NCBI GenBank assembly: GCA_964478735.1
Contig: CAYZJB010000001.1
Span: 206,835 to 270,834, forward strand
Direction: 5' to 3'
DNA from: an uncultured Bacteroidota bacterium
Lineage (GTDB): Bacteria > CLD3 > SB21
DNA length: 64,000 nt
Shown: piece after piece, positions 32,901-35,900 of the stretch
Layout: the number at the start of each line of letters is the position of its first letter
Position numbering within the stretch: position 1 is the first letter of the stretch
Made by a program: the position numbers

Positions 32901-35900
32901 CGGATGGTGGGGCATGTTTCATCCGGCAGGGCAAAAACACGTTGATGAAATGGACGGAATGATCCCGTTTTTTGCGTTGTGTTTTAGTGGCGTTGCAGGA
33001 TCGATGTACGTCATTGTAATGATCGTACGTAAAGTCCTGTCACGTAATGACTAACTATAGATCGGAAGATTTGGTGCCTCGGAATAGCCGGCTTGTTCCG
33101 TCGAGACTTGCATGCAACGTCTTGACAAGACAAATCTCTCTAACAGGTAACGAGTTCGGGTGACCAGGTGAACCTCCAAGCTTTTTCAACGACCGCTAAG
33201 AAGCCGTCATGATGTCTTGATGACTGACTCTGGAACTTCCGTTCCGCCCATTGCCTTCCATTTCGTCGTTCCGTATCATTTCCATCATGCCGGGGTTTAT
33301 TTCAGTCTTTGTCCTGTGTGCGCTGGTGGCAGTGGACGGGGCAGCACAAATGGGGCGGCGATCGTCACGAGATAAAAAAACAATCGTCGTCGCACGGGAC
33401 GGCAGTGGGCAGTACGGCTCCATCCAGGAGGCCATCGACAATGCCGATGCGGACTCATGGATACGGATACGAAGCGGCATCTATCGCGAAGACCTTCATC
33501 TCAAGAGTTTTGTCAATTTGCAAGGGGACGGCGTCGGCCGGACCGTGATCGTGGGAACCGGTGCCGGGCCCGTCGTCTCGGCGTACAATCTCTCGGGCAC
33601 GCGCCTGGTCGATCTCACGATCCAGTTTGCCTCTCCGGTCCCGTATCCCGTCCTGAGTTTCCGCTATTCGAGCGTTAACGTACAAAATTGTCTTGTCCGG
33701 AACGGCGCGACCGGTATCGAAGCCTATGGCCACAGTACCGTGCGGCTGAGAAATACCTGGCTGAGCGATCATACGGGCGACGGATTGCGCCTGTCGATCC
33801 GTTCCGAGGCCTACGTGCAGGACAGCCGGATCGAAAATAACGGCGGTGACGGTATCCGTATCGAACACGCCTCCGGTTGCAACGGCGACCGTCTGATCGT
33901 CCGCCGCAACCGCGGTCACGGCATCAGCCTCAAGGACCGTTCCGTCGGCAATTTTCTGGGAAATTATCTTTACGACAATCGAGGTGGAGGACTGCGCGCG
34001 GAAAACTCCGTTCCGGTCATCCGGAACAACACGTTCGTACGCAATGGAGACAGCGCCGGTTACGCCGTTCGCCTGGAAGGCGTCACGTCGGCCGGATTAA
34101 GTAACAATCTGGTCGTGTCCGGTTACGGGGGATTTCGTGTGTTCAAAAGTCAGACGGTAACGATGTCGCACAACGCGGTGTGGAACCTTGCCGTACCGTA
34201 TGACGGCATTGAAGGCGGTCCGACCGCACTTGAGGCGCCGCCGCGATTTGTGAATCCGGCGATCGACGACTTTCGCCTCGATCCGTCATCGGCGTTGTAT
34301 CATAAAGGCGAAGGCCGTGTCTCGATCGGCGCGGACTTCGACTACGACAAAAGCGCCAAACGTCAGCGTCTCGACTACCTGCGGAATCAGGTGACGAAAG
34401 ACCTTGTGCGGGGGAACTGGTACCTCGCGTATCAGGGCGCCAGGGAAATGATCGAGATCGACTCGACGGGCGGCGAGGGCCAGAGTCTTTTCAAAAAAGC
34501 GAGTTCCCATCTCGCCGAAGCGTATGCCGAACAGGCGAGGGAGGAATTCAACCGCGGTAATCTCAGTCTGGCCACGAACACCCTGCGCTTTGCCGAAAAA
34601 TACGACGCCTCCAATGAAGCCGTGAAGGATTTACGGGAGCGCATCGACGAAGCGTCGCGGGCGTCGCAGATCCGTTTTTTTTCCGTGATTGGCGTGCTGG
34701 CGGTCAGCGTCGTCGGGCTGGGTTACGTTCTTCGCAAGTGGATCCGGCAGCGTGACGCCCAGCGCCAGGTGCAGTGGTGGCTCGAAGACGCGGAGGAGCA
34801 CGTGGAAATGATGCAGGCCGCGGAAGGCGCCTCGTACGATGCCGACGCGACCCGCGAAGCCTTGAACGCGATCGAAAAGGCACGGGGCGCATTTGCCCGC
34901 AAGGAGTGGGACGAAACGGAACGGCACTGCGCCGATACCGTCCACTATGCCAATCGGGCCAGGGACGCTGCGGAACGGTATCATCGCCTCAAACGCGATG
35001 CGATCTTCGATACCGGGAACGCGGAGACGGAAATGATGCATTTCAAAACAAGCGATACGTCGGGCCGGTTCTATTCCGAGATTGCCGATCTGCAATCGCA
35101 ATTGCAGAAGGCGCAGGATGCGATCGTCGGCCAACGTTACGGCGATGCCAGGGACCTCGCGGCGCAGATCGTGGAAGCCATTGGCAACCTCCGGACGGTG
35201 TCGGCGCAGGAACGCGACCGTGAAATTCTGTCGCTTTTTCAGGAAACCGAAACGCTCATTATCGACGCGCTGGCGAGCAACAGCAGCGCGGACGTGATTT
35301 CCGTCGTCATCGATTTCAAGTCCGACCTCGAGGTGCTCAAAACGGGATTCACCGCGGGTCAGCTCGACGCGGAAGAGACGTGCCACCAGGTCCGGCAGAT
35401 CCGCGACTTCATCAACGAAGCGATGAAAATCGGCGAGCCCGGAGCAGGGGCATCACGACGGAAACGAACGTATTATGAAATTCTGGGCGTCAAGGAAGAC
35501 GCCACACTGGAGCAGATCAAGCAGGTGTATCGAAAACTCAGCATGATTTATCATCCCGACGTCAATCAGGACATGGGCATTGCCGGCGACGAACGGTTTC
35601 GGGAAATCAAGGAAGCGTACGACGCCCTGATGTTGGAAAAGACGAACGGAGGGCGTTCGTGAAAACGGCTTCCCGCGCGCCTTTCCGCATTTTTGCCGTG
35701 CTGGTCGTGCTCTGCCTCGCGCAGGCCGGCTGGTGGATTTATTTCCAGATTCAGGAGGCCGAGCATTCGTATCAACTCCGCATGAGCCATCTCGAGGCCG
35801 TGCGGTCTCTTGTCGAACTGCAACACGGGAACGCCCGTACCGGCATCGTCGACAGCGTACTGGCGCTGCAGTATCCCGATCTGAGGGTCCTGTCGTCCGA

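Follow-up and report, generated by a model that had tools for sequence, protein, structure and literature searches.

A rare membrane J-protein with a predicted periplasmic beta-helix, encoded with a two-component system in uncultured Bacteroidota, is a candidate accessory sensor

We analysed a stretch of 64,000 nucleotides from an uncultured Bacteroidota bacterium (GTDB lineage Bacteria; CLD3; SB21; assembly GCA_964478735.1, contig CAYZJB010000001.1, positions 206,835 to 270,834 of the forward strand), hereafter referred to as the window. It carries a gene for an unusual protein, here called the J-protein, in which a right-handed parallel beta-helix is joined to a C-terminal J-domain. The gene is a single uninterrupted open reading frame (ORF) on the forward strand, which runs from either TTG 33251 or ATG 33287 to 35662 and would encode 803 or 791 amino acids (aa), respectively. 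Because two close relatives begin at the ATG, position 33287 was taken as the probable start (791 aa). Along the protein we find, in this order, a signal peptide, the beta-helix, a helical stalk, one transmembrane (TM) segment, a predicted cytoplasmic helical bundle of ~230 residues and the J-domain. These parts are listed below, with the evidence for each in brackets.

33287–35662, forward strand: J-protein gene, 791 aa (ORF listing, Pfam, and full-length homologues of 38–98% identity with the same architecture)
33287–33346, forward strand: predicted Sec/SPI (signal peptidase I) signal peptide, residues 1–20, cleaved at GAA/Q21, the mature protein starting at 33347 (hydropathy, AxA-like site, Gln at +1)
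33347–33379, forward strand: basic stretch at the mature N-terminus, residues 21–31, QMGRRSSRDKK (residue count in all members)
33380–34342, forward strand: right-handed parallel beta-helix, predicted to be periplasmic, and its C-terminal cap, residues 32–352 (Pfam, AlphaFold, Foldseek)
34343–34669, forward strand: predicted periplasmic juxtamembrane helical domain, residues 353–461, which holds the conserved block DYLRNQVTKDLVRGNWYLAYQ (AlphaFold)
34670–34738, forward strand: single TM helix, residues 462–484 (hydropathy, charge bias)
34739–35434, forward strand: predicted cytoplasmic helical bundle, family-specific, residues 485–716 (AlphaFold)
35465–35647, forward strand: C-terminal J-domain, residues 727–787, with the HPD motif at 35552–35560 (Pfam, PDB profile, Foldseek)

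An earlier note, made from the sequence alone, had described one intact ORF linking a pectinesterase/NosD-like beta-helix to a J-domain, and the ORF listing, Pfam and AlphaFold all agree with this description. Pfam placed Beta_helix at residues 128–274 (E 3.6e-18) and DnaJ at residues 728–784 (E 3.7e-17), together with NosD (E 6.3e-10) and with Pectinesterase at residues 33–91 only (E 6.7e-8; profile positions 2–67 of 298), and Foldseek likewise recognised a right-handed beta-helix of the polysaccharide-enzyme type. The AlphaFold model built with the family alignment, which has a mean predicted local distance difference test score (pLDDT) of 80.9, comprises the beta-helix at residues 32–306 (pLDDT >90), helices at 353–460, the bundle up to residue 715 and the J-domain. 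In the stalk, helices are predicted at residues 353–375, 378–391, 396–422 and 426–439, and a further one, from residue 444, is modelled as a continuous helix up to residue 511 that would link the periplasmic stalk to the bundle across the membrane. These helical hairpins fit the earlier label of TPR-like helices (TPR, tetratricopeptide repeat) only loosely, and none of the Pfam TPR families gave a score for the window protein. Hydropathy picks out residues 1–22 and 462–484 as hydrophobic segments, and no others. The second, which has the highest hydropathy in the protein (2.34) and holds an invariant glycine (G479), covers nucleotides 34670–34738 and matches the single TM helix previously put at 34670–34732.

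The spacing of the genes suggests that the J-protein gene is the first of a putative four-gene operon. The GTG start of a histidine kinase gene overlaps the J-protein stop by 4 nt, the start of a response regulator gene overlaps the kinase stop by 4 nt, and a small exported protein is probably encoded by the last operon gene. These genes and the terminator-like element that accompanies them are the following.

35659–36738, forward strand: sensor histidine kinase, 359 aa, GTG start, with HisKA and HATPase_c (Pfam), two TM segments and no HAMP
36735–37421, forward strand: OmpR/PhoB-type response regulator, 228 aa (Pfam Response_reg and Trans_reg_C)
37522–37968, forward strand: small exported protein (predicted), longest ORF from GTG 37468, with a signal peptide ending AVA/Q
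37957–37975, forward strand: terminator-like GC-rich hairpin followed by a T-run, upstream of dnaE (consensus scan only)

The two TM segments of the kinase enclose a periplasmic loop of ~80 aa in the window and in the related locus L007, and of ~155 aa elsewhere. The kinase has neither a HAMP nor a PAS domain, and its H-box comes almost directly after the second TM segment. By analogy with QseE, which is driven by the accessory protein QseG (PMC12691602), a kinase with such a modest loop and without HAMP or PAS may be of the sort that often relies on an accessory protein. The response regulator scores under every NCBIfam equivalog cut-off, and its orthologues in the related loci are 62–72% identical. 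The small exported protein, for which neither Pfam nor PADLOC gave a match, has a conserved counterpart in the closest relative alone (L007, 66% identity, same position). The DNA upstream of the J gene showed no repeats of a kind that could be regulator boxes, and an Rfam scan of the window gave no matches. The ~900 bp that precede the J gene (32354–33250) hold no convincing gene, the sole candidate being a 69-aa ORF with two hydrophobic segments (32845–33054); rpsU (S21) usually lies upstream of the J gene in relatives, which is not so in the window.

We then compared the neighbourhoods of related loci, leaving out L009, which ends at a contig edge. The J-protein, kinase and regulator genes stand in the same order in 11 of the 13 evaluable loci (the window, L007, L005, L008, L010, L012, L013, L014, L016, L089 and L092). 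The gap between the J-protein and kinase genes ranges from −4 to +9 nt in relatives, and the J-proteins of the triplet loci are 39–55% identical to the window protein where measured. This conserved co-location with a cognate kinase and regulator, along with the 4-nt overlaps, is consistent with an accessory component of a two-component system and lends strong support to the signalling role put forward in the earlier note. The flanks of the triplet differ by clade: a small protein and dnaE lie downstream in the window and L007, and other clades have rpsU and redox genes upstream and a convergent LamG/type IX secretion system (T9SS) gene downstream. Moreover, in one sub-clade (L010, L012, L013, L014, L016, L089 and L092; e.g., L001 12452–18014), a convergent LamG/FlgD_ig/T9SS-tail gene comes after the triplet, with HSP20 next to it. 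Lon comes after HSP20 where the fetched DNA reaches (L010, L012, L013, L014, L089 and L092), and a REC-HATPase gene comes after Lon in L010, L012, L013, L014 and L089.

The architecture, which the earlier note had suspected to be unusual, is very rare and confined to a small lineage of uncultured bacteria. A search of 5.8 billion protein clusters returned just nine full-length relatives (39–98% identity), all with Beta_helix plus DnaJ, whose database names are 'right-handed parallel beta-helix repeat-containing protein' or 'hypothetical protein' and no others. When 1.84 billion representatives were searched exhaustively with an HMMER profile, seven family clusters came up, followed by giant beta-helix repeat proteins only. 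The J-protein is encoded in 10 of 185,579 GTDB species representatives, with 55% identity for the best; all carriers are metagenome-assembled genomes that bear the label 'uncultured Bacteroidota bacterium' or simply 'bacterium'. The 241 million JGI metagenome records yielded one locus, identical to L015. In the HMMER profile search, the beta-helix repeat giants swamped whatever ranked below the seven family clusters, including any stalk, TM segment and bundle attached to other ectodomains. The middle region alone (residues 350–725), used as a query for this module, failed to recover even the family itself, so this search was uninformative.

Whether the beta-helix and J-domain might in fact be separate genes was settled by related genomes at 38–98% identity, which keep the architecture as one gene. 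The fusion is therefore not a product of assembly: it is real and conserved. Among distant members, mean identity amounts to 79% in the J-domain, 45–52% in the cytoplasmic bundle, 50% in the periplasmic stalk and 42% in the beta-helix. These identities, together with the invariant HPD motif, indicate that every part of the J-protein is under purifying selection, as judged from the aligned sequences.

The orientation of the protein in the membrane was assessed from several features. A Gln stands directly after the hydrophobic N-terminal segment in 12 of 12 sequences (the 10 aligned members plus L011 and L015), and in most of them it is preceded by an AxA-like site. Such a Gln after the cleavage site fits the Q-rule described for signal peptidase I substrates of Bacteroidetes (PMC5837995; PMC10653852). 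Hydropathy, the AxA-like site and the Gln at +1 thus agree with the signal peptide named in the earlier note, which stands as a prediction. The signal-peptide and Gln pattern also occurs in at least two more of the window's proteins for which export is predicted. At the internal TM segment, the net charge is +1 to +3 on the C-terminal side and −4 to +1 on the N-terminal side in 10 of 10 aligned members. Beta-helices of this type also seem, from the Foldseek matches, to be typically extracytoplasmic. Because of the Gln/AxA pattern, the positive charge on the C-terminal side and an invariant HPD motif that is meaningful in the cytoplasm only, we infer that the beta-helix lies outside and the J-domain inside.

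J-domains are folds of ~70 residues in which helices II and III make a hairpin, and the HPD tripeptide sits in the loop that joins these two helices. The J-domain of the window protein scored 62.6 bits with Pfam DnaJ (cut-off 27.8) and matched PDB J-domains at E 1e-13. Foldseek superposed it on the DnaK-bound J-domain 5nro_B with a root mean square deviation (rmsd) of 1.1 Å (TMt 0.82), and it is 50% identical to the J-domain of E. coli DnaJ. The HPD motif that had been read at 35552–35560 is exactly there (H756-P757-D758) and is invariant in 10 of 10 aligned members. Neither a Gly/Phe-rich region nor a zinc-finger or DnaJ C-terminal domain, the lack of which tells class C apart from classes A and B, was found in the protein, and full-length DnaJ equivalogs reached only 35–59 bits (cut-offs 338–619), the J-domain part alone being matched. 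By its predicted fold and HPD motif, the protein is thus a class III/C J-domain protein, expected as such to stimulate DnaK.

The cytoplasmic part, modelled from a six-row alignment, reached a pLDDT of 87.6, with mostly >90 in the bundle. The bundle contains the conserved blocks RQxxWWL[ED]D and ALASNSSADIISAVIDFKSDLE. Foldseek of the cytoplasmic model returned J-domain matches only, with no PDB fold match to the bundle at E <0.01. A Pfam search of stalk and bundle at E up to 10 matched neither of them, its noise being Selenoprotein_S (0.014) and HEPN (0.16). Foldseek matches to P58IPK (TPR plus J) were rejected on account of their rmsd of >22 Å. The kinase has a 'WWIYFQIQEAEH' that resembles 'WWLEDAEEH' of the J-protein, but kinase orthologues do not conserve this likeness, and it was put down to coincidence. 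A reading as a defence system was also rejected, PADLOC having given no match for the J-protein and weak, generic ones for the kinase and regulator.

On the basis of what is observed, namely the architecture and its maintenance in a single gene, the invariant HPD motif, the operon structure and the conserved synteny, we hypothesize that the J-protein is the accessory sensor of a three-component system, made up of the J-protein, the histidine kinase and the OmpR-type regulator, and that it brings DnaK to the kinase. We give this reading a probability of about 0.5; the rest is shared between the four alternatives weighed below and explanations that were not considered. Which way the protein lies in the membrane, what it binds, whether it uses DnaK, whether the kinase is the client and in which direction regulation goes are all part of the proposal. 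After cleavage of the signal peptide, the J-protein would be a bitopic inner-membrane protein, with a non-catalytic beta-helix of the carbohydrate-binding type and the helical stalk on the periplasmic side, and the family-specific bundle and canonical J-domain on the cytoplasmic side. The state of the ectodomain, bound to an envelope or exogenous polysaccharide or in contact with the periplasmic loop of the kinase, would alter the way in which the bundle presents the J-domain. The J-domain would then trigger ATP hydrolysis by DnaK, which would be clamped on a nearby client, most likely the cytoplasmic part of the co-encoded kinase or the complex of kinase and J-protein. DnaK on the kinase would shift its kinase/phosphatase balance and, through this, the phosphorylation of the regulator and transcription. 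A narrower version, which we offer tentatively and regard as rather doubtful, is a chaperone-gated device in which a periplasmic glycan or envelope cue at the beta-helix would control exposure of the J-domain and DnaK would be loaded directly onto the kinase to switch it, as a hard-wired prokaryotic counterpart of ERdj4-BiP-IRE1.

The closest functional precedent is found in DjlA, a membrane-anchored class III J-protein of E. coli, which on overproduction activates the Rcs phosphorelay; this requires its J-domain (the H233Q variant is inactive), DnaK and GrpE, and involves a loosening of the IgaA-RcsD interaction (PMC11709261). The earlier note could not match the J-protein to any described system. 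This holds for the literature searched, in which queries for a J-protein with a periplasmic domain, or for one encoded with a two-component system, gave nothing relevant beyond DjlA, but the action of DjlA, DnaK and GrpE on Rcs does provide a functional precedent. Like the J-protein, DjlA is anchored in the inner membrane, bears a C-terminal cytoplasmic J-domain with HPD and is linked to a His-Asp phosphorelay. However, DjlA has few periplasmic residues, an N-terminal TM segment and a TerB-like domain in its middle, its gene does not lie with the rcs genes and its effect appears on overproduction, whereas the J-protein has an ectodomain of ~440 residues and a different bundle, and its gene shares a conserved operon with a kinase and a regulator of its own. 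In agreement with the earlier statement that the protein is unlike membrane J-proteins of the DjlA type, NCBIfam PRK09430 gave 26.1 bits against a cut-off of 162, in the J-domain region only, and there was no TerB match.

In the unfolded protein response of eukaryotes, ERdj4 loads BiP onto IRE1 and thereby represses IRE1 (PMC5733394); as in the system proposed here, the activity of a transmembrane sensor kinase is set by an Hsp70 that a J-protein delivers to it. The eukaryotic system differs in that ERdj4 is soluble, that it and BiP act on the luminal sensing side and that the components are non-homologous save for the J-domain, whereas the J-protein would act on the cytoplasmic output side. 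LiaF and CpxP are accessory proteins of the two-component systems of LiaS and CpxA, respectively. In these pairs, as in QseG-QseE, a third protein encoded with the kinase and regulator supplies or modulates the input, but QseG, LiaF and CpxP are not known to use a J-domain or a chaperone ATPase or to have a beta-helix ectodomain. RsgI-type anti-sigma factors of cellulolytic clostridia are single-pass proteins in which an extracellular carbohydrate-binding module reports polysaccharide, the sigma factor being freed after autoproteolysis. They share with the J-protein a single-pass path from an extracellular module to a cytoplasmic regulatory domain, but they work by release of a sigma factor, not through a J-domain or kinase, and there is no homology. 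If it functions as proposed, the J-protein would thus be a membrane J-protein and a two-component accessory at once, with an architecture and a hard-wired genetic linkage that are without precedent in the literature searched.

Several observations weigh against our proposal. The J genes of L011 and L015 have no adjacent kinase and regulator. In L015 a LytTR response regulator gene (L015 7051–7848) lies 12 nt upstream of the J gene, which is still a link to signalling, and in L011 a convergent GAF-GAF-SpoIIE phosphatase gene (L011 10378–12237) lies just downstream, as mere adjacency. Moreover, P0165, an orthologue of the kinase over its full length with 43% identity to that of L005, is encoded beside its regulator, and the 4 kb retrieved upstream hold no J gene; at this locus (L094 4001–6072), an aminotransferase gene is immediately upstream and URO-D is downstream. 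There is also a wider family of ~320-aa Bacteroidota kinases, 33–37% identical, of which the one member checked (P0170, L087/L088) has no J-protein nearby. From these kinases without a neighbouring J gene, the two-component core is therefore older than the J-protein, which looks like an accessory gained in this lineage. The beta-helix is, at 42% identity, the least conserved structured part, and no ligand-binding site was identified in it. Every member has 3–7 Lys/Arg in the 15 residues after the cleavage site; so basic a stretch is unusual in an exported protein and leaves some doubt about the topology. Finally, gene order alone cannot separate an input (a sensor) from an output or from a co-regulated gene.

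The alternative that survives best, although we consider it unlikely, is that the J-protein is a membrane-tethered co-chaperone serving the proteostasis of envelope or secretion proteins, with an ectodomain that localises it (to peptidoglycan, capsule or a secretion site) and with a kinase and regulator that control its expression. The J-domain would bring DnaK to the membrane, where pre-secretory or membrane clients would be held or unfolded, and the J-protein would be an output of the two-component system or a gene co-regulated with it. DjlA itself acts as a DnaK co-chaperone in general, with no known physiological clients and with an effect on Rcs that is seen on overproduction (PMC11709261), and Caulobacter DjlA is reported to regulate an efflux pump post-translationally (PMC10754441). 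The J genes of L011 and L015 that stand without kinase and regulator would suit such a role, as would the HSP20 and Lon genes close to the triplet in one sub-clade. This HSP20-Lon neighbourhood was nevertheless set aside as a link to proteostasis, since it is confined to closely related genomes (Lon 76–84% identical) and may reflect shared ancestry, that is, inherited synteny rather than a functional link. Furthermore, the order of the three genes and their overlaps are kept across 39–55% identity while the flanks change, which fits partners made in a fixed ratio, and the large, conserved and family-specific bundle suggests a dedicated partner, not generic clients.

It is less probable that we are dealing with an inner-membrane-anchored periplasmic polysaccharide enzyme (epimerase, lyase or esterase) whose J-domain controls only its stability or assembly. 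The best structural matches of the beta-helix are indeed enzymes: Foldseek placed the A-modules of AlgE4/AlgE6 at the top (E 3e-7), with further matches to alginate epimerase/lyase, GH87, pectin methylesterase (PME) and AlgG; phage tailspikes and NosD (7osf) were matched as well. A profile search against PDB sequences agreed with Foldseek (mannuronan epimerase, E 1e-10), and Pfam Pectinesterase reached 32.1 against a cut-off of 27. This last match, however, covers the N-terminal cap only, and the alignment to the PME 1gq8 ends at residue 73. The catalytic motifs of these enzymes are QDT and DFIFG (Gln/Asp/Asp/Arg) in the CE8 PMEs, and DPH[DE] in the mannuronan C5-epimerases (AlgE/AlgG). Neither DPH[DE] of the epimerases nor QDT and DFIFG (DF[IVL]FG) of the PMEs occur in any member of the family; the conserved polar residues are mainly those of the Asn ladder and GDG turns of the PbH1 repeats. 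In addition, no polysaccharide biosynthesis genes are conserved around the J gene. Without these catalytic motifs, the enzyme reading lost weight, and the beta-helix may be a binding module or an enzyme of another type, outside those families. Thus, the AlgE/AlgG epimerases, CE8 PMEs and NosD are like the ectodomain in fold and in PbH1-type repeats, but the J-protein is without their catalytic motifs and none of them has a TM segment followed by a J-domain.

We find still less to recommend an inside-out transduction of energy, in which cycles of DnaK binding and ATP hydrolysis on the bundle would pull the TM helix and move the beta-helix, much like the mechanotransmission of NosDFY, FtsEX and MacB, to power a task outside the cytoplasm, with the kinase as the reporter. 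NosD-type beta-helices are periplasmic working parts of an ATP-driven complex, and the 7osf match, the NosD matches in Pfam and NCBIfam and the continuous helix 444–511 are in keeping with this idea. However, the NosD subfamily TIGR04247 scores 44 bits against a cut-off of 300, no nos genes (nosZ, nosF, nosY, nosL context) occur in the window or related loci, and the idea is speculation, there being no known precedent for an Hsp70 that powers a periplasmic domain. Lastly, an artefact (mis-assembly or a frameshift fusion) or an inverted topology with the J-domain outside, where it would be no working partner of DnaK, is highly improbable: the basic stretch, by its K+R count alone, would favour an N-terminus outside, but the same single ORF recurs in independent assemblies and in 10 reference species, the N-terminal segment is followed by a conserved Gln and mostly ends in an AxA-like site, the charges around the internal TM segment put the C-terminus inside, and an invariant HPD in a J-domain 79% identical points to selection for an Hsp70 interaction that is possible only in the cytoplasm.

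Elsewhere in the window, other signalling genes are present. A large sensor kinase with Reg_prop, Y_Y_Y and HATPase_c is encoded directly after dnaE (41395–45226, forward strand) and is followed by a LuxR-type response regulator. This kinase, which lies ~6 kb away from the J-protein operon, looks like a periplasmic glycan sensor of the Bacteroidota style, and a similar gene comes after dnaE in L003 (closest relative). The gene at 22888–25266 (forward strand) encodes a hybrid sensor kinase that combines several PAS domains with HisKA, HATPase_c and a receiver domain. Upstream of the operon are genes for a TPR-rich lytic transglycosylase with an SLT domain (28586–30910, forward strand) and a DUF2851 protein (30980–32353, reverse strand), neither of which is conserved beside the J gene in relatives. 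AT skew, calculated over 2-kb windows, peaks at 0.25 at 18001–20000, in the region of the sigma-54 rpoN gene, and at 0.22 at 62001–64000.

So far, Hsp70 co-chaperones are known to touch bacterial signalling only indirectly, as illustrated by DjlA, which acts on Rcs when overproduced and has no known natural trigger or client. With a J-protein fixed in an operon with its own kinase and regulator, and endowed with a large ectodomain, the idea that DnaK takes part in signalling could be tested directly on a defined client. Two-component systems would gain a new class of accessory input, and an unannotated cytoplasmic helical fold a first functional context. Should the narrower, chaperone-gated version be true, envelope sensing would be coupled to the cytoplasmic load of unfolded proteins, with free DnaK as a second input. 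The J-protein would also offer a handle on how little-known uncultured Bacteroidota read their envelope or the polysaccharides that surround them.

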